Source of the DNA: Lytechinus pictus | Taxonomy: Eukaryota | Direction: 5' to 3' | DNA: 64,000 bases | NCBI RefSeq assembly: GCF_037042905.1 | Contig: NC_087251.1 | Location: 15,440,001 to 15,504,000 of the forward strand | Part shown: positions 16,418-62,657 of the stretch, in pieces | Layout of the letters: each line of letters begins with the position of its first letter | How positions within the stretch are numbered: the first letter of the stretch is position 1 | The notes under the pieces: generated by a model | The model's database searches: none | Seen by the model: only the letters and a program-made list of their open reading frames with translations | What the model was told of the DNA's origin: nothing | Translations under genes and position numbers: made by a program

Positions 16418-17294
16418 CAGGGGCGTCGATCCATTTTTCAGATTGGGGGGGCAAAATCATGAATCAACGTTCCAAAGGCGCTCGATCGTACAAAACACCC
16501 CCCCCCCCACACACACATAGGCATATTATATATATATATATGTATATGTATATATGACTCATGAGATACAGACATGTATCTCACCAACAAATTAATGCGA
16601 GCGCTTTGCGCTCGCTGAATTTATTTTAGTATACTGACCTTAAAACTGGAAAAGCGTACCTGCAGGACTGTTTGTATAGTAACTCATATGGAGGATACAT
16701 ATCTCACTACACAGATTATGCGAGTGCCGAGAGCGAGCTGAAATTTCTTTATATTCTGGCCTGAAAGCTTGATATTCTAAGCATTTTTGGTACCAATGAT
16801 TAAGATTGGTATCTAAAAGAACAAATCTCTCTCTAACAGCTCGCATTTCTAAAGAGATGCGAGCGCGAAGCTCGAGCTGAAAATTTTGATATTTCGATCT
16901 GAAAAAATGACAGTTTAATGGACGTTTTTTTTTTAAAGAACAAGATATATATCCAACAAAAGATTATTGCAAATCGAAGCGGGAGTTATTTTAAGGGTTA
17001 GAACTGAAAACGGGACATTCTATTCACCTATTTAATCATGAAAAGTATGGGTTTTTGCTACAGAAATGATGCGAGCGCGAAGCGCGAGCTGAACATTTTT
17101 GTATTCCAATCTGAAAAGCGGAAATTTTGAGCACGATTTGAAATAGAGAACGAGTTGTGTATCTCAATCTCGCTTGCTGAACATTACAATCTTATTTTAT
17201 TTTTGCACATCCGGAATTATTGGGGGTGCAAAACGATATTTTTATTGGTGGGGCGATCGCCCCCCTGCCCCCCCCCCCAGGATCGACGCCTCTG
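16418..17294 (+). mobile_element. hAT-like non-autonomous element (CAGGGGCGTCGATCC...GGATCGACGCCTCTG)
   Basis: 15-bp TIRs; highly similar inverted copy at ~51320-52035. Confidence 0.8.
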
Positions 17295-19132
17295 GTTTAT
17301 GCTTACCACACAGAGAGATAAAAATAACACAGTTCGCAGACGATACGACGATATTTATTGATTCGATTAAATCCCTTCATAATGTTATGAAAGAGATAAA
17401 TAATTTCGGTAATATTGCAGGTCCAAAAGTAAATTGGAATAAGACAAAGATGTTAAAAATAGGGATATTTAACTTAGAAAGAAGCGAGTTCGATTTTACA
17501 GATGATCCTGTTAAGTATTTAGGAATATTTGTGGGAAAAAATGAAGAGCATAAACGAAAGCTAAATTGGGAAGGGAAAATTGAAAAGGTCAATAACATAT
17601 AAAAACATGGAAAATGAGACAGCTTACATGTTATGGTAAAATAATTATTATAAAATGTTTAATTGTGCCTCAAATCGTTTATGTTGGTACGGTTATTCCA
17701 ATGCCAGACTATATATGCAAGGGTTTACATTAGATAATATATTGCTTTTTATCATGTTTATGGAATTCAAAGCGTGAGAAAGTTAAACGTAATATTTGTG
17801 TCAGACCGATAGTTGAAGGTGGTCTTGGTATGATCGATCTATATTCGAAATCAAAATCACTTATATTGTCCTGGATAAATTCCTTTTTTAATAATTATGA
17901 TGCAGTCTGGAAAACACTTTTCTCGTTTTGGTTAAGTTACATAGGAGAAGTCCCCTACTGTTTTCAAATGAACTGTCATCCAAAACACATGTTAAAGCTT
18001 TGTCGAAAAAAGGGTTTACCAATGTTTTATATTGAATTTCTATATACATGGGCTCAATTACGTTATTTAGATGAGCAGAATGTTGAAAATATATATCGTG
18101 AAATATTATGGAATAATAGTAATATTACAATAAATGGACAACCTTTAAATTTTCAGGAATGGAAAGAAGCTGGTATTTTAAATGTTAAACAAGTTGTATA
18201 TAAAGGTAAATGGAAAGATATATCATTTTTTAGAAACTTTTTTGATGTTGATAATTTAGTATTTAGTTTTAGATTTTAAAATTAAAAATGCATTTCCTGC
18301 TCATTGGCTTGAAAAATAAGTATGATGAAAGAAAAACAAAATGAGTCTCCAGAAGAAGAAGAAATTGATACATCTGTTGGTGAACGTATTAATATAACTT
18401 GCACCAGAGCAAAACAATATTATGTGTTGTTTTTACAACAAAAGAAGGTTGATTTTTTGATATTCTGGACATCTGGGGAAAACAACTAAAATTGCCTGAA
18501 AATTTAGTTTGGAAAGATATCCTTCATTTCAAATTCAAAAAGATAAAAGATAACAGAATTAAGCAATTCAATTTCAGACTGTTACATAAGATATTACCTT
18601 CTAGAGACAATTTGTTCAAGTGGAAAGTTGTAAATACAAATCAATGCGAAATCTGTAATCAAATCGAGACCATTGGCCATATTCTGTTTTTTGCAAAGAG
18701 ATTAAAGTTTATTGGAAAATCATATCGAGGATGATTTATTTTATTTTCAAAGAAGAAATTGTGATAACTATGAAAACATTGTTAATTGGGTATAAAATAG
18801 ACAACCCAAAATTTGATCTTATTAATTTGACGATCAATGTTGCCCAGTTTGTAGTTTATAATCATTATGTAAAATGCAACCTTCAAAATCTAAATCATAG
18901 CAATAAGAGATTGATCACGGAATTTGTTTCATATTTGAAGTTTTATTTAAATCATTACGGATCTAAACAATTTTGTGTATTAGAGGTCAAGAAAATTATT
19001 GATATATTGTAATTCCTGTTATAAATATTATATCATTTGACTCTTGAAAAAAAAAGTTATTCCTATGTAAATATGTATATGTAAATATTTTGAAACAATA
19101 AATCCTCAAGGAAGAGGCAGAGAGAAAAACAA
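17295..19132 (+). mobile_element. 5'-truncated, frameshifted L1/Tx1-clade LINE (ORF2 RT C-terminal half + CCHC)
   Basis: EIKITQFADDTT RT motif, VKYLGI, GGLG, ILWNN, FRLLHKILP, CEIC...ETIGHILF knuckle across broken frames; AATAAA ~19097 and an A-rich tail. Confidence 0.9.
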
Positions 19133-30134: not shown

Positions 30135-31090
30135 TGGACACTTGGATGTTCGACTCAATTCTAATTAGCATAAATTACTTCTGAGTTGAAAACGCAGCCC
30201 ACTAGCATACTATCACTTATTCGTGCCAGCTGAAAAAAGACAAATAGATAATAAACAAGGCCAGCATACAACATAAAGTTTATGAGGTGCTGTAGAATCT
30301 TGTGTTATGCATGTTTATTGTTACGTTGATGTGGCACATCATCACATGACTAGTCATATGCTGTTATTTGGGATTCTTCACACTGGCCTTGCTTGCTCAC
30401 TGCCTCAAGCAAAGTCGTTCTTATATACCCCAGCAAATGATAAGCTAACTTTTTGATAGTTAGTGAAGAAATCATCACGTCATGGTTTAACTTCCCAAAT
30501 ATCATGCATAAACATGATGTTTGACAATAGACATTAGTGCTATCCTCCAATAGAAGAGAAGAGGTGAGGATCTTTTATCATGCATTGCATTCATGAATCA
30601 AGACCAGGGTCCTGTTTCATAAAGGACCCTGGTCTTGATTTCATAAAGAAGTTACAACTGTTGTAACTTTGCCATAATGGCAACTACCATGGTAACAGGG
30701 CTCAGCAGCCAATCATAATCAAGGTTTCCATGGTAGTTGTCATAATGGCAAAGTTTACAACAGTTGCAAGTCATTTATGAAACGGGCCCCAGTTCAAAAA
30801 GGTATTCAAGCCTACGATGGCTAAACATGGCACCCTCTGCTACTTTGAATTTCAATGGTATGTCTACTAGTACTCAAAACAAATTATTAATATGTGCATC
30901 ACCTCCAGAAATTTGTCTAATAATAGTGGGACACTAAACCTCAATGAATGCATGATTGTTGCTAGGTCAGACAATGACTTTTTAGATAATTTTGAATATC
31001 ATGCATACTTTTGATACAAAGATGAATGCATGGCTCATAACTGTTGCTACGACAGGTGAAAAAAGTATAGATTAGCCATTGACACATTGA
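30135..31090. repeat. ~1-kb dispersed repeat, copy A (copy B at ~53915-54965)
   Basis: Colinear blocks such as ctaattagcataaatt..gagttgaaaacgcagcccactagcatactatcac and ctaaacctcaatgaatgcatgatt in both copies, same orientation. Confidence 0.85.
30607..30790. mobile_element. Short palindromic MITE (GGG.CC.GTTTCATAAAG termini; Harbinger-like)
   Basis: Same family as 34797-34954; absent from the paralogous repeat at 54.6 kb. Confidence 0.8.
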
Positions 31091-41141: not shown

Positions 41142-41920
41142 TAGGTGACTAGGCTTTCCAGAATTTTTTAAGTTCTTTTTTTTAATTATGGCATGAAGTC
41201 TGAGAGGGTTCTATACAATTATGTCTAAAATTTCAAACTCACAAGTTGTAAAAAAGGTCATAAAAATGCTGCTATCTTTGTGTCTTTTAGAATGATAGCA
41301 GGCATACAATGTCACATGGGCCAATATAACCCCCCCCCCCCTCCCCACCATGGCACCATCCCATCCTATTAAAAGATTGCTTCAATTCGAAAGCTATGGT
41401 TTGTATAAAACACATCATCGCAATGGTCAGATCATGCTTGGAAGATGTAAGATTTTTCAAAATCTTAAACTGAGATCAAATTATGGGAGTCAATAATGAG
41501 ATATTAAAAAGAAAAGATGAAAAACAAAAAGTTGAGTTCGAGATACACAAGAATACGTCATATAAAACAAAACAACTGAGAAAAAAAACAAGCATGTCTC
41601 ATCATAATCATATATTACAATTTACATTAGATTATTTTATCTTAATTTGAGCTTATGAAATGGTAGGAATTCTGAAGATTATATCAGTAGCATGTAACTG
41701 ACTAATGATGATAAGTTTTATGAAACATGGACCAATACAACAACAATCAATACCTCTTGACAGAGATGCAGGAATATGTTGTATTTACTTTTTCAAAGTT
41801 TTGTACATGGTGAAAAGAATTAAAAATATAACATTTTTGATAATCGCTGTGATTTAATTTCTCTCTATACTCTTCATTACAGACAGAAACAGAAAAAAGG
41901 AATTACTGTTCAGGTCTCAC

Positions 41921-43353
41921 TTATTTCATTTGAATCTACATCATCATGCATGTAGCAGTAGATCAGTTGCTCTGGCGTCATGTAGCACCCTGAGAGAGAC
42001 TCTAAAAGCTTTGGAGTAATGAAGCGAACTGTCAACGTTGGTCCTATACGGTGAGCTAGCCACATGATGCTCTCACTCGCAACATCACTTAGGCTCTTTC
42101 CAATTAGGGTGTTGACTTGATATAGTTTAGAGGACAACTGCTTCTTGTAGGTCCTCCTGTACTGGTCTGTGGCTTTGGTCTGACTTGTAAAGAGAAGGTC
42201 CTGTTCTTTGGTTTGCGAATGGGTACTGGGGGATGGTGATGAGGTAGATTTGCGTGAAGACACATCCTTTGAAGGAATTCTCTCGATGGTGGGCGAGCCT
42301 TCACCAGGCTCTTCTGATAAGGAAGGTAAATTCCCTGAGCTGATGGATGAGGTATCTGGCTCTTTCCCTAGTGACATGGTTTCACTGCCTTCACTGTCCA
42401 AAGGAGATGCCTGCTCACTTAAAGAGCTTCCATCATCTCCATTTTGAGACACCGGAACATCATCATCCTCCAGATTCTCCTTAACCTGGTCAACATCCTC
42501 CAACTCAATCTGCAACTTATCATTCATTCCTTGTTCGATAGTCCTCTCTTCACTGACTTCATCGCCTACTTCATCACCATCCTCAATTCCAAACAGTTCT
42601 TCATCAACAGACATGCCCTCTGTTCCATCAAGGAATGTCTCAGCCTCTTCCGCAGTATTACTCGCCCCTGAGGCCATTGTGGCAATGCAACTAGTTTGCT
42701 CATTAGCACCATGCATGAACATGGGGCATTGCTTCAGCCCATTTGTTGCTTCTGTGACATAATTCACCAAGGTGTTCAAGAATGGTTTGAGACCTAAGGA
42801 CATGATGACCTGAGAGAGAAAAGAATGCTGGAACAGCAGGAGGTAGTCTGGTGAAGTAAAATCAGAATCGAAGAGATGACCCAATGGAGCAAGCAACTCA
42901 TCCGTTGCTGCCTTTGGGCCAAGGTGTGCAGTGTACTTGCTGAACAAGGACAATGCTGCATATACAGCAGTGCTGCCTTCCTCAAAGAGACTCCTGATAT
43001 ATGGTAGCAGGATATCCCTTCCTTCCTCTGTGATGCCTTTGGTGCACTTGGGTAACCATTGTCTGGCTAGATGGACCATGTTCATGGCCTGATGGTCAGT
43101 GAGGTCCGTCTGATGAAGTTCCTGGTCATCCACCTGGAACCGCTGTAGATGAAGCTCAGAGAGAAACTGATGCAAGGACTGGAAGTACTGAGGAAATGAA
43201 ATGAGACCTGAGTGATGTTGAAGCAGAAGGCTGGGGCTTAGTGGTGGCAGGCCATTTTGACCACTTTCAAAGTATGCAGACTGCTCCCAAGGTAGGCATT
43301 CACCCAACGTTGTGTCCATTCTTAGCAATGTATGCACTATCTCTCTGAGTGGC
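41921..43353 (-). CDS. WDR81: WDR81 coding exon 9 (helical region + acidic/Ser-rich linker)
   Basis: 1433 nt within ORF 41910-43460; ttacag|...|gtgaga; GLPPLSPSLLL and WLAHRIGPTLT motifs. Confidence 0.95.
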
Positions 43354-43574
43354 CTGTAAGAGAGAAAAAAAATATATGTATATAATGGAAAAATGTACTT
43401 ACATAAAAAAAATAACGCAAGCATTAAAATTAAACTACAGACATATGGAATGAGATACAAACAAGTTTATCTTAATCAAAATTTATTTGTATTGATAGGG
43501 TAAATTACTTCTTAAATTTAATCAGTTTTCTCCTCTAAACATGATCCTATCCAAATTCAAGAATATGAATATAA

Positions 43575-43871
43575 ACAAGAGGAACACCTTCCTTCATTTA
43601 AGATTTTGATGTTGTTTACCCTAAGATGGTCTAAGTTCATTGACCCCCAACAATTACTTTTGACCTTGGTCATGTGACCTCAAACTCTGGCAGGATGTTT
43701 AGTAATACTTGATAACCATTATGTTTAAGTTTCATGAACTAGGCCCATATACTTTTTAAGTTATGATGACATTTCAAACGCTTAACCTTTGGTTAAGATT
43801 TGATGTTGACGACGCCGCCGTCAGAAAAGCGGCGCCTATAGTCTCGCTCTGCTATGCAGGTGAGACAAAAA
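43575..43871 (-). mobile_element. Short HINE/Helentron-like element ending about 12 nt from the exon 8 donor
   Basis: tgaccttggtcatgtgacct unit plus the terminal gcggcgcctatagtctcgctctgctatgcaggtgagacaaaa. Confidence 0.75.
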
Positions 43872-43883
43872 CTATTGATATAC

Positions 43884-44062
43884 CTTGGTAATTCCTGGTA
43901 TTCTGCTCCCACAACCCTCTGCAAATGTCTCCACCTTGATTCCAAGTCTGACCCGATTTGGCGGAACCTTAGTTTTGGGGCAAGGCATAACTCGGCGACA
44001 ATGCAGCCTATTGCTACCATATCCCTAGCAACAAGCTGCTGCCAATGGACTTGAGTTTCTTC
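43884..44062 (-). CDS. WDR81: WDR81 coding exon 8 (EETQVHW...RDMVAIGCIVAEL...ELP)
   Basis: aaacag|...|gtatat; 179 nt, phase 0->2. Confidence 0.92.
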
Positions 44063-44278
44063 CTGTTTGGATTGGAGAACAAATGAAAAGGCACTTAATT
44101 GAGGCTTGAAATATTAGTGGAACACATGGTATTACAGTCTGTATTTTTTCACTCCCTTGGGTATACAGCCAAGTTAATCAGGTACATAACACTATTTCTT
44201 TTCTCCAAGTGCAAATCAACTACTAGTATATCAAAAGATGCAAATGGTTAGTTTTATGCACTGGGGCCCAGGACTTAC

Positions 44279-44441
44279 CACTTTGTGAGTCACAGGTACA
44301 TCATAGCTTGACTTGGAAGTGAATGAGTAGAGTGATTCCAATTGATTGAGAGCAGAGAGTGGGTCGTATTCCTCAGGAAGGACAATGGTAGCAAGCTCTG
44401 GTCTGATCAGCCGCGAGTCAAGAGGCATGTCAGACTTGGGT
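44279..44441 (-). CDS. WDR81: WDR81 coding exon 7 (PKSDM...IVLPEEYDPLSALNQLESLYSF...)
   Basis: ttttacag|...|gtaagt; 163 nt, phase 2->0. Confidence 0.92.
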
Positions 44442-44829
44442 CTGTAAAATAAGTGTTTACGTGGCATTGAAATTCATTGCAAGCTCTTCATATCCAGTAG
44501 TTTATGAAGTGAGCAAAACAAAGAGACATGAGTGTCACATTTATCTCTTCCTCAATAACAATATTCCTTTGTTCTTTTTCTTCCTTTTCTTCTTTTCTAC
44601 TCTCTTTTCCCCCTTTGTCATTCATTATATAAATTGACACTGACATAAATCATTGTCATCTAAAACTATACTAGAAACGTTTGTATCTACAATGGCTCAA
44701 ATACACTCATATGGAGCATAAAATGATAGAAATTACAAATTTCAATCTCTGAATGGGAACAAAATTGATATGAAATGAATTCTAGGTCAAAGTCTCTTAT
44801 TTTACAGTGACCTTTTTCAAGGAAATCAC

Positions 44830-44999
44830 CTGAAAAAGGGCAGTTTCCTGATTGGATTTTTGCTAAGCTGTAGATCCTCTGCTGCTGAGTAAGAACCAGC
44901 CACATTCTGTGCCTCTGTGTTGAAAGACTGTGATCTGGCTCGTATTGCAGTTGCATCAGACTCCTGGAGATCACTACTCCTTTCACTTTCAGCAGAGGT
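44830..44999 (-). CDS. WDR81: WDR81 coding exon 6 (TSAESERSS...KLPFF)
   Basis: tttctag|...|gtgatt; 170 nt, phase 0->2, required to keep frame between exons 5 and 7. Confidence 0.8.
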
Positions 45000-46802
45000 C
45001 TAGAAAGAATAAATTTAGCAATATGTCCGACAGTTCATGCAATCAATACAGGCTTCCGTGATAGAAAATATTAGTTTGATTTTTAATAGGACCTCATCAA
45101 GAGTATTTTTGGTCAGAATTGTCAAAATTCAATTTGTTTTATTTCCTGGAAGAGAGCACTATTTTTTCTATGGATTTAAAAAATCTGAATGTGCTAATAA
45201 ATCCTAAAATGCTAGTTTTGAAAGTTTTTATCGATTCTATTTTGGGTATTTTATTGTAGATATAGTGTTACTTATTATTTTATAGGTTGTAATAAAATTG
45301 TCTGGCTTTGAGGGAAATGCCATATATATTTCCTGAACTAGTCACATATTGCCCGAGTCTTGACGAGGGCAATGTGGTTCTAATGAAGGAAATGTAATTT
45401 GGTATCTCGCGGAAATGAAAGCCAGCCTACATCTATATGATGTGTAATTCAAGATATCATTTGTAGCAATTTCTGTCTATTTACCTGTTGTTACATCTGA
45501 TTTCAAATTCAGGTTATTAGTGAACTTGGTGGAGTAAATGTGAAGTGAATACGGCGCAGGTTTGCATCATGAGTTTATAATCAATTAGCCAGACAAAATT
45601 CATGTTTATATCTTGTATATAAATGCCTCATTATATTTTTGGTGCAGACCTAGATAATTATTTCACTTTGACCTCACCACTCATGAACAGGGCAAGTTCT
45701 TGCATTGATTCTTCAATCAAATAACAATGAACAGGATGTGAGTAAGTGGTATGCCTTCTTCTTCTATGAAATTTCTATTGAATTTCAATCCTCTTTTTGT
45801 TCACCTTTGCCTAACAGTTGGGGGGGATCAAGTATGCTTCTATAGACTTACAAACTTTAATTCTTCCTCTCTCATAAGGAGCATTTTATGCAAGTGAACC
45901 TTGTATTTGATAGATTTGAAAATTGTTTTTGTTAGTGGGTTAGGAAATGAGTTGCATATAATTTTTTTCAATTTCAGAAGGGAGATTTTAACTGAAATTC
46001 AATTTCTGATGACCTTTTGTGGGGTTCGTGATGCCTGCCACATATGATTTTGACTAAGAGCATGAGATCTTGAAAGATAATAGCAGAGCTGCCAACTTTG
46101 CACAACCACAAAAAAAAATCATATAATGGCAAAAAAAGAGGAATTTGGGGGAAAATCCAACAAAAACAAAACAACATAACCTTTAAAAGTGATGAGAAAC
46201 CAAATGAAGAGAAAATAAATGAGAAACATGGGCAACAAATGAATAGTTGCATACCATGGATTTTAAGATGCTCCCATAGAAAATACAAGTTGAGAAATCA
46301 AAGTTATCTTTTAAAACTATAACTCCTGTGTCACCATTTTCAGGTATTAAAGTCAGATTTTTCCCCAAATCAAACAGGGAAACTGAAATGATTGTTACAA
46401 GAAGCAAAATTAATAAATATTGATTGTGTGTTCACAAATTAGTTCTGATTATTTTTACAATGAAATAATACTTCTTATATAAATTACAAATCAAGACTTC
46501 AGGGCAATTCCACATGGGCATTTGAACAATTTTCTATTCATATCTACAGCATTTTGGTAACCATGGTAACATAATTACCAGAAAATTGAGCCACTTTCAC
46601 AAAACAAAATTGCCTCATAAATAAAATATGCCACACACTTAAAAGTATATTCATGATCCTATCATGATTCCTGCTTGTATGCTTCATCCAAGGCTTTGAG
46701 TATTAATGACCATCAATCTAATTGCTTTTACTATAAATGTGAAGTAAGATGACCTATTTTTCTCATGTGTCATTGCCCTTCAACAACTACAAAAATTCTT
46801 AC

Positions 46803-47132
46803 TGTGAGGTTATCCTTGGTGTTAGGAGAGAGAGTGTCCATTGTATCCTGATCAGAGATGACTTTGCTATCGCTTCCTTCACTTCCTACAGACACATCCT
46901 GATCTGACCTTGAAACACTTTCCTCCTGGATGGTCACGTTGATGGATGATCCTGCATCTATCTGAGACCTCTCGATGTCCGGTCCCTCCATGGACATGTA
47001 GGGGGATGGAGAGAAGCGTTTGGGATGGGGCACATTGAAGAGCTGCACCACTCCATTGTTTGCCGGCAGCGTGTGTTGGTCAACCACACACAGCACCACG
47101 TTCTTAGCTCTTACTGCCGCTGTACCAGACAA
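46803..47132 (-). CDS. WDR81: WDR81 coding exon 5 (LSGTAAVRAKNV...QLFNVPHPKR; end of BEACH)
   Basis: tttccag|...|gtaaga; 330 nt, phase 0; BEACH terminal motif QLF..PHP.R. Confidence 0.95.
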
Positions 47133-47757
47133 CTGGAAATATTGGAGAAAAAAAATCATAATTAGTCATTACATTTTCTTTAAAAAATAAAGCACCTAAA
47201 CATGAATTCAAAACAGAGATTCTTTACATTATCTAAAGTGACCATGACAATCCATACTGCCTAAAATTTCTCTGAAGATAAAGGGCTAGACAAATGGTTA
47301 TGGTAATGCATCTGAATGGTGTTCCACAACGCTTTTCATAATATAGAAAAAGATTTGTTACAGTCTTCTAAAAAATATGAGATTTTATTCTTTCATTATT
47401 ATTACAGCTCCAAAGCTGAAGGTGTACTTAGTCCAATATCTTCTCCTGCAAGTTAGAGGATATTTGTTGTTGAATGTCAATGTAGATTGTACTTTCTATC
47501 AGCCCTCACAATAAACCCTCATGAGGGCACTTGAGGCATTATTACCTTCTTTTTCTTTGGCATAGAACCACTGCCAGTAATAGGGGCATTTCAACAGCAG
47601 AAAGGCAGGTGCAGTGGACAGTGGTCACCCAAGACAAGTCTTGATGCCTTGGGCTGTTGCAAGGGCAGATTTCATTCATATTAAAACCTCACATGAACCT
47701 GTGCATTCTCACTTTCCCAACGTGGATGACATCCTATATAAAGAATTCTCTTGATAT

Positions 47758-48194
47758 TAGGGCCGTTATCGTTGAGAATATTCTCTGTCGATATCATGCT
47801 AAAAATATGTTACCAATATCGATATCGATAATCAATACGCGTGCAGTCATGATGTTTGGATTGTCATGATCTCACCCACACTTCGCTATTGTGGGAGTGA
47901 GATCGTGTTTTGTGGCTAATATTCTGTATTCGTATTTTGTTGAGATTTTGGAGTAATTTCTGTTGCTGTTCTGTGCAGTTTGAGGAAAAATATGTTTTCC
48001 GTGATTTTCCTTTGAAAAGCCACTTTCAAAGGGCCGTTTCCTTGAATTCTTTGAAATCGCTGAAAATCACTGTGTCCCTACATTATAGCAGGTATTATCG
48101 ACAACGAGAGCAAGGTTAGCGATATCGCTAAGTGAAAAAAAACAAGCGACTATCGACAGGATTAGCGATAAAGACTTTATCGATAACAGCCCTA
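47758..48194. mobile_element. hAT-like MITE (TAGGGC.GTTATCG TIR; ATCGAT-rich subterminal repeats)
   Basis: tagggccgttatcg ... cgataacagcccta; no TSD seen. Confidence 0.65.
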
Positions 48195-48296
48195 TGAGCC
48201 CTACATGTATATGATTTATATGAAATTATTCTTTACAACTGGCACTTCAGTCATTCTGATAAGTGAAAACAAGCTTAGTCTACAATGATACCTTAC

Positions 48297-49496
48297 CTTG
48301 CAGCCAAAGGTAAGATCAATCCATCGATGAAGCCTCTCTGAGACATATGGACTTTCCAACACAGCTCTATGCTTCTGTACAAAGTCTTCTGGACCATTGC
48401 ACCAGGTGGGCACCTCCAGATCAGGCAGATCATCATGAATTGACTTAAAGATGGAAGCATCGGAGAAGAACTCTGGGATACATTCATCAGGTGTCCATCC
48501 TTGGAGCCGCTGCATGCTGGCTGGATACTCATTGGGCACCCATACTGATCGCACATGGGTCTGGAGCAGAGTCTTTGGTGTGCAACGTGCCTTGTAGATG
48601 TAGTAGGTGATTTCAGACAGGACATCAGAGATGTGGTGAGGGACCTGACCAGCAAGGTTGCTCCCGTGCTCCTCATTCAAGGCCTGCATCTGTAATGCAG
48701 ACTCATAGGTGAAGTCTAACTGATTGTCTCCTTTGTTGAGTCTATACTTGGATTTGGAGAAATCCCTGTAGCTGCCATTGGGTTGGGTGAAATCCATGAC
48801 CCAGGGCATGATTGGATGATGGTTGGGGTTGCCCATTTGACGATTGGCAAGACGATTAAGGATCATAAGATATTCATAGTTAGTGAGCTGCCCCATGGCC
48901 CATTTCTGCATAATTTCTGGTAATGCATCCATCTTTGGAACACACTTGAAACCACCACCTATTGCACATGGTTGATTTATATCTGTTTTGTCACTTTGCA
49001 CTTTAGTTTCATTTACTATTGCACCACGTTGACCTTCGGGCAAAGTTCTTTGAGTTCTTTGATTGCTCCCTACGAAGCTCAAGACATCATTCCACTTTGG
49101 TCCACAGAATTGCACCCAGAGTTTTTCATCAATGGTAAAATCAGACAGCGATACGTTCCCACATGACATGCCTCTTTGATGACAGTGACTCACTGCATGC
49201 AGCATTTGAAAGATGACAAATAGAACCTTACCATGGGAACCAGAGAGGGATGCAGGACTGAACATGGTCACATCCTGGACTGTGTGCTCGTGGTGAGGCT
49301 GAAGAAGGTACAAACAGTCTTTGGTGACTATGCAGCAGAACAAAGACACCATGTTGGAATGTTCTATGGCTTGAGACTGTGCAGTATTGGAAGATTTTCC
49401 AGCTGTCTTAGAAGCTGAATCTGACATGTCATTGATGGAGATAATTGGACATCCATACAACTGCTGGATTAAATCAATTACTGTTGTGGAATCAAC
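48297..49496 (-). CDS. WDR81: WDR81 coding exon 4 (kinase-like segment + BEACH domain)
   Basis: 1200 nt within ORF 48216-49523; ttacag|GTT...AAG|gtaagg; BEACH signature motifs. Confidence 0.97.
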
Positions 49497-49622
49497 CTGT
49501 AAATGCAAAGAAAATAAATACAATTAATTTACTACATTTTTCTCATTATATGAACTCCATCTCCACAACTGAGAGACGATTGATATGATAATTACGATGA
49601 AAACTAATTTGTCTCATATTAC

Positions 49623-53914: not shown

Positions 53915-54965
53915 GTATGCACCTACAATCTAATTAGCATAAATTGCTTTTGAGTTGAAAACGCAGCCCACTAGCATACTATCACCTATTCATGCCAGCC
54001 GAAAAAAGGCTGACATAAATAGATAATAAACAAGGCCAGCATAAAGGTTAGCTGGGGTTTTGATGTGTGGTAGAGTCTTGTGTTGTGCATGTTTATTATT
54101 ATGTTGATGTGGTCACATCATCATGTAATGACATCATCATCACATGACTAGTCACATGTTGTTATGTGTTTCTTCACACTGGCCTTGCTTGCTCACTGCC
54201 TCCAGCTGATGAACGTGTGTGTGTATTTGAGTTTTGTCAGACGTGGATCAATCAGATATGATTATTTACGTCTGGGACAGACCTTTAACGTCACCATCCG
54301 AAAGACGTGACCAGGGCTCGAACCTCTGCATCAATTTGTAACTTCCCCGCATAGCTTGGATTACAGGCGCACGCCACAACGCCCAGTTGAACAAGCAAGG
54401 TCGCCACAACGCCCAGATGAACAAGCAAGGTCTTTCTTATATACCCAAGTACATGATGCGCAAACTTTTTTATAGTTAGTGAAGAAACCATCACACCATG
54501 GTTGAATCTCATGCATAAACATGTTGTTTGACAATAGACTTTATTGCTTTCATCCAATAGGCAGAGAAGAGACCTGTGAGAATCTTATCATGCATTCACT
54601 AATACAAATTAGGAATTCATTGCATAATTTGAATATATTTTTTTAATCCATAATGAACAGTCCACAAAGGTGTATTCATATCTTAACCTACAATGGCTAA
54701 GATGCAGCAAACTACTGTCTGGTTCATTGAATTTCAGTGGTATTCTTCCATTCCATTCATATGGATCTGTCTACCTAAAAGTACTCAAAACAAATGCCGA
54801 ATAATGAAATATGTGCATCACCTTTTGAATTTGTCTAGTTTAATAATGGGACTCTAAACCTCAATGAATGCATGATTCATGATTACTGCTAGGTCAGACA
54901 ATGAATCACCTGCATACCTTCGAGACAAATATGGATGCATGGTTTATGGCTGTTGCTAGGTCAGA
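53915..54965. repeat. ~1-kb dispersed repeat, copy B (hosts the 7SL-like SINE)
   Basis: Homologous to 30135-31090. Confidence 0.85.
54215..54387 (-). mobile_element. SINE with 7SL/SRP Alu-domain-like head, B box, Deu/Nin-like core and (CA)n tail
   Basis: Minus strand reads ACTGGGCGTTGTGGCGTGCGCCTGTAATCCAAGCTATGCGGGG...GGTTCGAGCCC...GTCTTTCGGATGGTGACGTTAAA...(CA)n; TGAAC direct repeats flank it. Confidence 0.75.
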
Positions 54966-55592
54966 CGAGGTTTGGTGAATGAATTTATAGATTCATTCAT
55001 ATATTAAAATACTAGGTTCGTTGACCTTTTGACCATGATCATATGACCTGAAACTGCAATCTGATCAGTGGTACTTGATTGCAGTTGTGTCCAAGTGTCA
55101 TGAAACAAGTCCATTTACTTTATTAAAGTTATAATGGCTCATCATAAACTTAACCTGGTTTAAGATTCCAATGCTGACGATGCCAGTTGCAATAATTTTC
55201 ATTAAAAAATAAATAAATAATGAAAATTTAAAAAACACATAAATACATAAGAAATTCTAAAAACAAGGAAATACATAAGAACATTTTGACTTTTGCAATT
55301 TTTCTTTGTAAAACCTATAAGATTACAAAAATGACATCTGAAAAAAAAATCAAAATCGTAAGTGATATTGGGTATTGAATATGCAAATGTTTTCAAAAAT
55401 ATATTTGTATATTTCATTCATAATAAAAAAGTAATTATTTCAGATTTTTTAATACCGGCTTGCAGTTTAGGTTGCAAAGAATGCGCCAGCCAAATTTCAG
55501 TGTGATCACACAAACTGCAGCTGAGATCAGAGGGGGGCATGATGCACCCCCACCCCACATCCTCAATACATCTCAAATAGCACAGTCCTTTA

Positions 55593-56778: not shown

Positions 56779-58054
56779 CAAGTGGAATGCTCTGCCAGTC
56801 TCGCCTGCATTATGCTCTTCAATTTATCAGCAGTGCTTTGAAAACAACTAAGATGAATAATTATTCACAAAACACCATAATGAGATACTAGGTTCACTGA
56901 CCCTAAATAACCTTTGACCTTGTTCATATGACCTGAAACTCGTGCAAAATGATACATGATTACCCTATGTCCAAGTTTCATGATATATCTCCACAAACTT
57001 TTAAAGTTATGATGACATTTAAAAAATACCCCAACATGGCCAAAGTTCATTGACCCTAGATGACCTTGACCTTGATCATGTGACCTAAAACTTAAGCATG
57101 ATGATCAGTGATACTTGATTGCCCTTATGTCCAAGTTTAATAAACTAGGTCCTTATGATGACATTTAAAAAACTGAACCTAGGTTAAGATTTCAATGTTG
57201 ATACCCATAATATGAAAAAAGTTCACTGACTATAGATAACCTTTGACCTTGGTCATGTATGTAACCTGAAACTCATGCAAGATGATCAGTGATACTTGAT
57301 TACCCTCATGTCAATTTTTCATGAACTAGGTCCATATATTTTTATGTTATGTCTGATGACACTTCAAAAACTTAAAGGAGAATGAAACCCTTGAAACCAG
57401 CTGAATCCATATCAAAGAGAAAAATCAAAGAAACATAGTGTTGAAAGTTTGAGGAAGATTGAATGAATAATAAGAAAGTTATGAGCATTTGAATGTCGAG
57501 ATCACTAATGCTCTGGAGATCCTCCTATTGGCAATGCGACCAAGATCTATGATGTCACAGATGAACAACTCTCCCCTTTTGGACACTGAAAATATACCCC
57601 AAAACATCTCTTTTTGCTCATTCTAATCATGTGACAAACGATTCATCAATGATATAATGTTGTGAAACCTCTGTACTTGTCCTCTCATAAAGAGAACACC
57701 TCACCTTGTGATAGACTCTATAAAAGTGAGAATATAAGTGAAATAAGTACTAAAGTATAATGAGGGAGTTGTACGTGTGTGACATCACAGATCTTGGTCG
57801 CATTGCCAATTGGAGGATCTACATGGCATTAGTGATCTCGACATTCAAATGCTCATAACTTTCTTATTATTCATTCAATCTTCCTCAAACTGTCAGCAAT
57901 ATGTTTCTTTGATTTTTTTCTTTGATATGGATTCAGCTGGTTTCAAGGGTTTCATTCTCCTTTAACCTTGGTTAAGATTTCAATGTTGACACCGCCACCG
58001 CCATTGGAAAATCAGCGCCTATACTCCTGCTCTGCTATGCAGGCGAGACAAAAA
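56779..58054 (-). mobile_element. HINE/Helentron-like element with internal tandem units and a nested MITE
   Basis: caagtggaatgc..gtctcgcctgcat ... atgcaggcgagacaaaaa subterminal inverted repeats. Confidence 0.8.
57376..57961. mobile_element. Young near-perfect palindromic MITE with TTAA TSD (Kolobok-like)
   Basis: TTAA|AGGAGAATGAAACCCTTGAAACCAGCTG ... CAGCTGGTTTCAAGGGTTTCATTCTCCT|TTAA; ~190-bp arms. Confidence 0.9.
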
Positions 58055-58311
58055 CAGATCATAAATAAATTGAATTCAGTATTTTTTGTGACGAAAGGGA
58101 CATATGATAATGATATATCAATAATCAAAGACATTTTGGACTGTGTTACATGTTGCATAGTTGCACAGAATCAACAGGGTTTAAAATACATGAACATGTA
58201 GCTAGTAGTGGTCAAAACCACTCAACTGTACAAATGCCCCAAATATTTGATGCACATATCAAACTGCAAATATATATTAATATCATAATTACACAATAAT
58301 TGCTATTTAAA

Positions 58312-59438
58312 ACAAGTGGAATGCCTCTGGCCGTCTCACCTGCATCACGCGATTCAATATAGCAGCAGTGCTGATTTTGAAAACTACTATAACTCGCACA
58401 AGATGTTCAGTGATACTTGGTTAAGTACTCTTATTTCCACGTTTTATGAACTAGACCAATACACTTACATGTATAGAGATATGATGGCAATTCAACAAAT
58501 ACCCCCAACGTGGCCAAAGTTCTTTGACCTTACATGACCTTTGACCTTGATCATGTGACCTGAAACTCGCACAGGATGTTCAGTGATACTTGATTACTCT
58601 TATGTCCAAGTTTTATGAACTAGACCAACACACTTACATGTATAGAGATATGATGGCAATTCAACAAATACCCCCAACGTGGCCAAAGTTCTTTGACCTT
58701 ACATGACCTTTGACCTTGATCATGTGACCTGAAACTCGCACAGGATGTTCAGTGATACTTGATTACTCTTATGTCCAAGTTTTATGAACTAGACCAACAC
58801 ACTTTCAAATTTATGGCTGTAATTCAACAAATACCCCAATTTGGCCAAAGTTCATTGACCCTAAATGACCTTTGACCTTGATCATGTGACCTGAAACTTG
58901 CACAGGATGTTCAGTAATACTTGATTACTATTATGTCCAAGTTTCATGAATCAGATCCATAAACTTTCAAAGTTATGATGGTAATTCAACAGATACCCCC
59001 AATTCGGCCAAAGTTCATTGACTCTAAATGACCTTTGACCTTGGTCATGTGACGTGAAACTCATGCAGGATGTTCAGTGATACTTGATTAACCTTATGTA
59101 TAAGTTTCATGAACTAGGTCTATATATTTTCTAAGTTATGATGACATTTCAAAAACTTAACCTTAGGTTAAGATTTTGATGTTGATTCCCCCAACATGGT
59201 CTAAGTTCATTGACCCTAAATGACCTTTGACCTTGGTCATGTGACATGAAACTCAGGCAGGATGTTCAGTAATACTTGATTAACCTTATGGCCAAGTTTC
59301 ATGAACTAGGTCCATATACTTTCTAAGTTATGCTGTCATTTCAAAAACTTAACCTCAGGTTAAGATTTGGTGTTGATGCCGCCGCCGTCGGAAAAGCGGC
59401 GCCTATAGTCTCACTCTGCTATGCAGGTGAGACAAAAA
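58312..59438 (-). mobile_element. Full-length HINE/Helentron-like element with ~5-6 tandem 160-180-bp units
   Basis: SubTIRs gtctcacctgcat/atgcaggtgagac, (GCC)n microsatellite, A/T-run flanks; 169-bp period at 58452/58621/58790. Confidence 0.85.
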
Positions 59439-62515: not shown

Positions 62516-62657
62516 GTTACAAATTGATGCAGAGGTTCGAGGTTCGAGCCCTGGTCACGTCTTTCGGACGGTGACTTTAAAGGTCGGTCCCAGACGTAAA
62601 TAATCATATCTGATTGATACACGTCTGACAAAACTCAAATACACACACACACACACA
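62516..62657 (+). mobile_element. 5'-truncated copy of the same SINE
   Basis: gttacaaattgatgcagaggttcg...gtctttcggacggtgactttaaaggtcggtcccagacg...aaatacacacacaca. Confidence 0.85.

Follow-up and report, generated by a model that had tools for sequence, protein, structure and literature searches.

A young SINE with a head derived from 7SL RNA, found in the sea urchin Lytechinus pictus

We analysed a 64,000-nucleotide stretch of genomic DNA from the sea urchin Lytechinus pictus (contig NC_087251.1, positions 15,440,001 to 15,504,000; hereafter the window). Its minus strand carries a complete copy of a short interspersed element (SINE), 173 bp long counting its AC tail, and our reading of the window bore out the coordinates and strand that a first-pass annotation had assigned to it (Table 1). 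The family consensus falls into three parts: a head at positions 1-46 that matches the 5' end of 7SL RNA, the signal recognition particle (SRP) RNA; a linker of ~35 nucleotides (nt) at positions 47-80; and a tail of ~95 nt that begins with CGTCTTTCGG. An A-box-like 11-mer lies inside the head at positions 12-22, a B box of the transfer RNA (tRNA) type lies at position 64, and TTTT is absent from the consensus, an arrangement consistent with an internal RNA polymerase III (Pol III) promoter. The tail ends in (AC)4-12 across copies, and the 5' part of the window copy is G+C-rich. The B box, the AC-type tail and the 5-bp direct repeats described in the annotation were all found.

We scanned positions 54150-54480 (331 bases, the span to which the E values refer) against Rfam with Infernal at sensitive settings. 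The proposed 7SL-derived head was recovered as a match of 54341-54387(-) to model positions 1-44 of Metazoa_SRP (RF00017; 29.6 bits, E 4e-6). Helices 2, 3 and 4 and the U-turn were all aligned, including the helix 3 pairing and the U-turn recognised earlier by hand. Older copies of the SINE scored 31.9-34.9 bits against the same model. The other Rfam matches in this span were a weak one to the Alu-derived mir-1268 model and one chance match. In their minimum free energy folds, the head and the host 7SL 5' end formed the same pair of hairpins.

We then compared the head with the host's own 7SL genes. The genome searched (811.7 Mb in 368 contigs) contained seven full-length 7SL genes (272-283 bits). 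Six of them start alike; the seventh, L007 on contig 12, departs from them at position 3 and at the helix 2 partner of that base. Exactly these two changes, which none of the other 7SL genes has, are found in the SINE. Counted from the first base of the RNA, the prefix identical to L007 is 31 nt long in the young consensus and 34 nt long in the copy at L008, well beyond the chance resemblance that the first-pass annotation had allowed for. The head matched the Rfam metazoan consensus at 34 of 44 aligned positions. By these alignments the head fits a sea urchin 7SL gene better than generic or mammalian 7SL. This closer fit argues for a birth inside the sea urchin lineage and against contamination, and supports the independent origin suggested earlier. 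At the level of sequence, these data establish that the head derives from the host's own 7SL gene.

A genome-wide DNA search with the window copy returned 1,661 first-look candidates. All 40 single-locus matches scored among these were 98-100% identical to the window copy and had the identical starting base; five further matches sat in one tandem array. A 24-mer from the head, chosen to differ from the 7SL genes by one inserted base, matched 1,420 places on all large contigs with at most 2 mismatches (reversed control, 0). This number is an undercount, as a common subfamily has a 2-nt deletion within the pattern. A 24-mer from the tail matched 1,371 places (control, 0). Every one of 56 aligned full-length copies carried the 7SL head, and 53 shared the first base. 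Among 21 places with an exact tail (20 regions, taken in order along contig 1), 16 had the head and 5 were 5'-truncated; these 16 shared 85-98% identity with a consensus built from 29 young copies. The loci behind weak genome-wide Rfam matches likewise belonged to this family (12 of 12 inspected, 92-95% identity).

We also searched for copies with another head. Places without the usual six bases before the body numbered 47 genome-wide (control, 5). About 12 of these were head-bearing copies with small indels, and the remaining body-only places shared no upstream 15-mer, so no alternative head, tRNA-derived or other, was found among them. Near-identical words of the element occurred in sequencing runs under three coded organism labels from 10 studies; the family is therefore not peculiar to one sample. 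The family is large, uniform in structure and young, and its copies carry the marks of retroposition.

Older copies (~92% identity) have two tandem GTTCGAG units, against one in young copies. Indels in the helix 4 loop distinguish the subfamilies; the letters of helix 3, the U-turn and the helix 4 stem are fixed, and the tail module is invariant. Copies show the defined 5' end, repeat tail and target-site duplications expected of retroposition. Among 37 copies assessed for direct repeats, 10 had exact repeats of 6-13 nt and 13 had repeats of 4-5 nt, the latter near chance level. Such short and variable flanking repeats fit long interspersed elements (LINEs) other than L1.

Some copies occur within larger repeats. 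At L030 (G000:C18:3952125-3953141) the SINE forms a head-to-tail array of six units, and a SINE dimer ~190 bp apart recurs at five loci (L039-L043); the family has therefore seeded tandem or segmentally duplicated repeats. At L083, L092 and L062, and in the flanks of L018, L032 and L084, we observed a shared flanking repeat of ~130-230 bp with units containing GTTATTCAACAT...GTGGGGTCTTTG. The SINE may prefer this satellite-like repeat or be carried within it.

The window copy interrupts a host repeat, and the annotation had pointed to a paralogue at ~30400 without the element. The flanks of the SINE align at ~80% identity with window positions 30160-30410 and 30406-30586 and meet at 30406-30410, which identifies that locus as a copy of the repeat without the SINE, though 12 further bases are also missing there and it is not a clean empty site. 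The flank sequence that is duplicated beside the 5' junction is present only once in the paralogue near 30406-30410, which places the duplication after the insertion. The first-pass annotation had not recorded this duplication. The second, truncated copy reported at 62516 was also found. It begins at SINE position 45/46, so the entire 7SL head is missing.

Table 1. Positions of the SINE, its parts and related features (window coordinates unless a locus is named).
Feature	Position	Strand	Basis or remark
Complete SINE copy	54215..54387	-	First base 54387, last C of the AC run 54215; direct reading, 98-99% identity to 39 other single-locus copies, and an alignment that includes 55 further full-length copies
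7SL-derived head (5' domain of the SRP Alu domain: helix 2 strand pair, helix 3, U-turn, helix 4)	54341..54387	-	Rfam RF00017 match and host 7SL prefix
Linker with tRNA-type B box	54308..54340	-	GGTTCGAGCCC, at 54314-54324 and at consensus position 64
Tail module, ~93 nt, presumed LINE-recognition part	54215..54307	-	Begins CGTCTTTCGG, ends (AC)5; same across subfamilies; truncation points near its start
(AC)5 run	54215-54224	-	Direct reading
5-bp direct repeat (target-site duplication)	3' copy 54210..54214; 5' copy 54388-54392	-	5 bp alone is weak evidence
30-bp tandem duplication of the 5' junction	54401..54430	-	Repeats 13 flanking nt and the element's first 17 nt, with 2 mismatches
Paralogous copy of the host repeat without the SINE	30160..30586	+	Flank alignments of ~80% identity, meeting at 30406-30410
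Second copy, older subfamily	62516..62657	+	Two GTTCGAG units; BLAST 91.9% over 135 nt
Old SINE copies near the contig-10 7SL genes	L001 876-1049 and 1289-1462; L005 1293-1466; L006 1314-1466

The element lies ~5 kb from the exons of a WDR81 gene (BEACH and WD40) at window positions 41910-49523 (-). One WDR81-like exon, at 48219-49523 (-), is 99% identical to a Lytechinus pictus protein and 85% to that of Strongylocentrotus, which marks the genome as that of a camarodont sea urchin and agrees with the echinoderm host proposed in the annotation. Window positions ~55022-55167, ~635-780 nt past the 5' junction of the SINE, show 69-79% identity to eight places within 56877-59367 and also match 43657-43816, which suggests a local tandem or dispersed repeat.

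Copies that are 5'-truncated form a discrete class starting at most 3 nt from CGTCTTTCGG, the start of the tail (for example at L064, L065, L067, L079, L088 and L093). A pattern that excludes ordinary copies matched 69 places, 28 of which read CG directly before TCTTTCGG, after unrelated sequence; a strict pattern with four non-SINE bases before the tail matched 0 places genome-wide. This class could be due to RNA processing, to a stop of the reverse transcriptase or to an independent mini-element. A Pfam RVT_1 survey of the genome gave 12,239 first-look candidates for reverse transcriptases. According to a table in PMC3747384, published sea urchin SINEs pair with CR1/L2 LINEs. At L077 (G000:C1:28894792-28897821) a 502-amino-acid open frame with reverse transcriptase and GIY-YIG motifs (Penelope-like) abuts a slightly truncated SINE copy, probably by chance insertion. 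In the window, two open frames at 17147-18279 (+) with the reverse transcriptase-like motif FADD resemble a LINE fragment, whose end is unlike the SINE tail.

We assessed the class of the element against published definitions. SINEBase defines a SINE as shorter than 1 kb, interspersed and present in at least 100 copies (PMC3531059), and the family, with its 173-bp unit and its head and tail places spread over the contigs, has these properties. The same source also asks that a SINE match tRNA, 5S or 7SL RNA with 60% identity or more along 60 nt or more, with exceptions if Pol III transcription is shown (PMC3531059). As in a SINE1, the 5' part of the element comes from 7SL RNA; the 3' 7SL region that pairs with the 5' region in the Alu domain, and that the supraprimate, shrew mole and hagfish families have in common, is missing. 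Nor is the head recognisable as a tRNA, as that of a SINE2 would be: ARAGORN found 0 tRNA genes in the window, no tRNA family of Rfam matched positions 54150-54480 even at E values up to 10, and the tRNA-like part is limited to the B box and a T-arm-like segment. A 7SL retropseudogene would have a full-length or 3'-complete 7SL followed by poly(A); this element has 7SL positions 1-46 only and an (AC)n tail.

Several observations weigh against the reading as a 7SL-derived SINE. The Rfam score of the head is far under the family gathering score of 70, because just 44 of the 299 model positions are present, and a scan of the whole window at gathering thresholds gave no match. The 7SL similarity spans 46-47 nt, short of the 60-nt overlap that SINEBase asks for. 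Past position 47 we observed no 7SL similarity: in local alignments with host 7SL, 69-848 of 1,000 dinucleotide shuffles scored as well. The element also lacks the 3' half of the Alu domain, which all described 7SL SINEs retain. Neither the head nor the whole element was predicted to fold more stably than shuffles (z +0.18 and -0.21); true host 7SL 5' ends were likewise no stabler, so that fold energies are uninformative. Exact flanking repeats of at least 4 nt were absent from 14 of the 37 copies. No LINE with the SINE tail was found among 30 loci examined of the 69 tail-start places; 22 of these 30 have unrelated upstream sequence with no shared LINE-like region.

In older copies, Infernal closed a helix-5-like stem across a 221-position deletion, which added only ~5 bits and included several non-standard pairs. 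The element thus joins three pieces, a minimal 5' Alu domain, a B box of the tRNA type and a tail of the LINE type, and is not a full Alu analogue. Its 5' end would function as that of a SINE1 does, and its 3' end as that of a typical invertebrate SINE2. The label 'Alu-like' used in the annotation therefore holds for the 5' domain (46-47 nt) of 7SL, which is present, and overstates the case for the 3' 7SL segment, which is absent.

We looked for the origin of the B-box segment near the 7SL genes themselves. In six of the seven host 7SL genes (L001-L006), the terminator is followed 20-50 nt downstream by a conserved segment that resembles a B box and T arm, GGTTCGAGTCC flanked by a stem; ARAGORN found no tRNA gene at the seven 7SL loci. 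This segment could serve the 7SL genes as a downstream TFIIIC site, or could be what is left of a tRNA-derived element. The older form of the SINE linker matched the 7SL 3' flank at 26 positions in 33 columns. For four flanks 0-11 of 1,000 shuffles aligned as well, and 16-99 of 1,000 when the B box was left out; for the other three flanks the alignment failed, with 75, 137 and 779 of 1,000 shuffles as good. Among 100 listed genomic contexts of GGTTCGAGDCC, those of generic tRNA-type SINEs matched at ~12 of 19 positions when judged by eye; the 7SL flank matched at 13 of 17. Birth by deletion within a 7SL locus, which would have joined the 5' domain to the downstream B box, is an attractive hypothesis and is put forward only as such. 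It is equally possible that the 5' domain was fused to a tRNA-derived SINE, the route proposed for the hagfish element. Each of the three tandem 7SL genes on contig 10 has, ending ~35 bp upstream of it, an old SINE copy (79-87% identical; Table 1) that was evidently duplicated along with the gene.

These data make it highly probable that the element is a young, abundant sea urchin SINE of three parts, namely a 7SL head, a B-box linker and a ~95-nt tail. It most likely moves in the following way. Pol III would start at the base matching the 7SL start, using a promoter made up of the A-box-like element in the head and the B box ~50 nt downstream. The consensus lacks TTTT, so transcription could read through into the flank. 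A tail-specific LINE, whose reverse transcriptase would recognise the tail, would write copies of the RNA into other genomic sites, with target duplications that are short and vary in length. In addition, SRP9/14 may be bound by the head and the RNA carried to ribosomes, as happens with the homologous 46-nt Alu domain.

This last role, suggested by analogy with Alu, is a tentative proposal that we place somewhat short of an even chance. Moldovan, Yin and Moran 2024 (PMC11760393) report an association between the 46-nt 5' Alu domain and SRP9/14, and that this domain is necessary for Alu retrotransposition. The captured piece is the stretch homologous to that domain and ends there, not after the A box at position 22, and the letters of helix 3, the U-turn and the helix 4 stem are constant across subfamilies. 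An SRP14 exon is present in the host genome; a search of the genome for the SRP9 family gave no match, a blank that is no evidence of absence. Against the role, or neutral towards it, are the missing 3' strand of the Alu domain, the consideration that a tail-reading LINE may not need ribosome docking, and the uninformative fold energies. The chances are about even that the 7SL piece is instead a promoter and start-site module and nothing else, with its A box spaced for a tRNA-type B box, no SRP9/14 binding or ribosome docking, and a LINE that reads the tail directly. The canonical B box, which 7SL itself lacks, points this way, as do the absent 3' strand, the long conserved tail of the type used by tail-recognising LINEs, and the published pairing of sea urchin SINEs with tail-reading CR1/L2 LINEs (PMC3747384). 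The end point of the captured piece speaks against a mere promoter, and so does the retention of the stem letters at positions 23-46 in all subfamilies seen, which, with three or four subfamilies, is weak evidence.

Other explanations concern the novelty or the nature of the family. It is somewhat unlikely that the family is already catalogued, for example as a sea urchin 'SINE2' entry in Repbase or in Dfam, with its 7SL head overlooked or recorded; in that case only the novelty falls. Repbase has several Strongylocentrotus SINE families, all labelled tRNA-derived (SURF1/SINE2-4c_SP, SINE2-1 to -8_SP), a label that the tRNA-type B box could prompt, and the occurrence of the element under three organism labels indicates a family not confined to one sample. 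On the other side, Kojima 2020 (PMC7245038) and Kosushkin et al. 2024 restrict known 7SL SINEs to supraprimates, the shrew mole and hagfish, and our full-text literature search returned no 7SL SINE from echinoderms or from other invertebrates. It is very improbable that the element is an ordinary tRNA-derived SINE with a 5' end that is 7SL-like by chance or by A-box convergence. The B box and its surroundings are indeed tRNA-like; chance likeness is ruled out by the 31-34-nt prefix identical to a host 7SL gene from the same first base, and the ARAGORN and Rfam searches gave no tRNA. The probability of a one-off chimera, a 7SL retropseudogene or primate Alu contamination is close to nil. Only the Alu resemblance of the head, including the weak mir-1268 match, favours any of these; the 1,420 head-bearing places on all large contigs rule out a one-off, the better fit to host 7SL than to the metazoan consensus rules out a primate source, and poly(A) and a full-length 7SL body, which a retropseudogene would have, are both absent.

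We compared the family with known 7SL-derived SINEs. Kojima 2020 (PMC7245038) describes a hagfish family as the first evident 7SL SINE outside Euarchontoglires, and Kosushkin et al. 2024 count three independent origins, in supraprimates, the shrew mole and hagfish. The annotation had named hagfish and amphioxus as further hosts. The hagfish is in the literature; our search found no amphioxus report, and the shrew mole is the other non-supraprimate case.

The Euarchontoglires SINE1 elements Alu and B1 and the shrew mole element Urop share with the sea urchin SINE a head from the 7SL 5' end with the same first base. This head retains the portion with helix 3, the U-turn and helix 4, for which SRP9/14 binding has been reported. 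L1 moves Alu, B1 and Urop, which are made of 7SL only (5' and 3' parts joined across a central deletion) followed by poly(A), whereas the sea urchin SINE has the first 46-47 nt and no 3' 7SL part, and adds a B box, a specific tail of 95 nt and (AC)n. A further parallel is the hagfish SINE1-1_EBu (PMC7245038), independent and young, with a 7SL head, a non-7SL body and tail, a microsatellite end and a non-L1 LINE; its 2,363 copies are of the same order as the sea urchin family. The hagfish head has both 5' and 3' 7SL regions and its tail matches a known RTE LINE, whereas the sea urchin SINE lacks the 3' region and its host is an invertebrate.

Other comparisons rest on published descriptions. 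The left unit of the tree shrew Tu type II element, which Kosushkin et al. 2024 cite as deriving from both 7SL and tRNA, resembles the sea urchin SINE in its mixed promoter unit; unlike the latter, it is part of a dimeric or trimeric L1-dependent SINE. The head covers the stretch homologous to the 46-nt minimal 5' Alu domain (model positions 1-44, ~46 nt). That minimal domain is an engineered human Alu deletion assayed in HeLa cells (PMC11760393), whereas the sea urchin head is known from sequence alone. The sea urchin SINE2 families SURF1/SINE2-4c_SP, SINE2-3_SP and SINE2-8_SP (PMC3747384) have the same host group, a B box and a CR1/L2-type tail; they are listed as tRNA-headed, which by these descriptions sets them apart from the 7SL-headed family found here, and the latter may nevertheless be identical with one of them.

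Taken jointly, these points could be read as the first invertebrate 7SL SINE and a fourth independent birth, in which exactly the 46-nt SRP9/14-binding domain was captured and anchors the RNA on the ribosome so that a LINE of the non-L1, tail-specific kind is hijacked, and which may stem from a deletion joining the 7SL 5' domain to a downstream B box. As a whole, we consider this combined reading unlikely.

Alu, the human genome's most successful mobile element, is one of the 7SL-derived SINEs. Independent origins of such SINEs are extremely rare, and the sea urchin family would extend them to invertebrates. SINE specialists describe each new origin as unexpected (Kojima 2020, PMC7245038; Kosushkin et al. 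2024). The family would amount to a natural experiment in which evolution kept the first 46 nt of 7SL, the piece reported as necessary for Alu mobility (PMC11760393). It makes testable whether the 5' Alu domain is useful to SINEs generally, even with non-L1 LINEs, or is just a convenient Pol III promoter, in a host whose embryos are easy to use for RNA injection and biochemistry.

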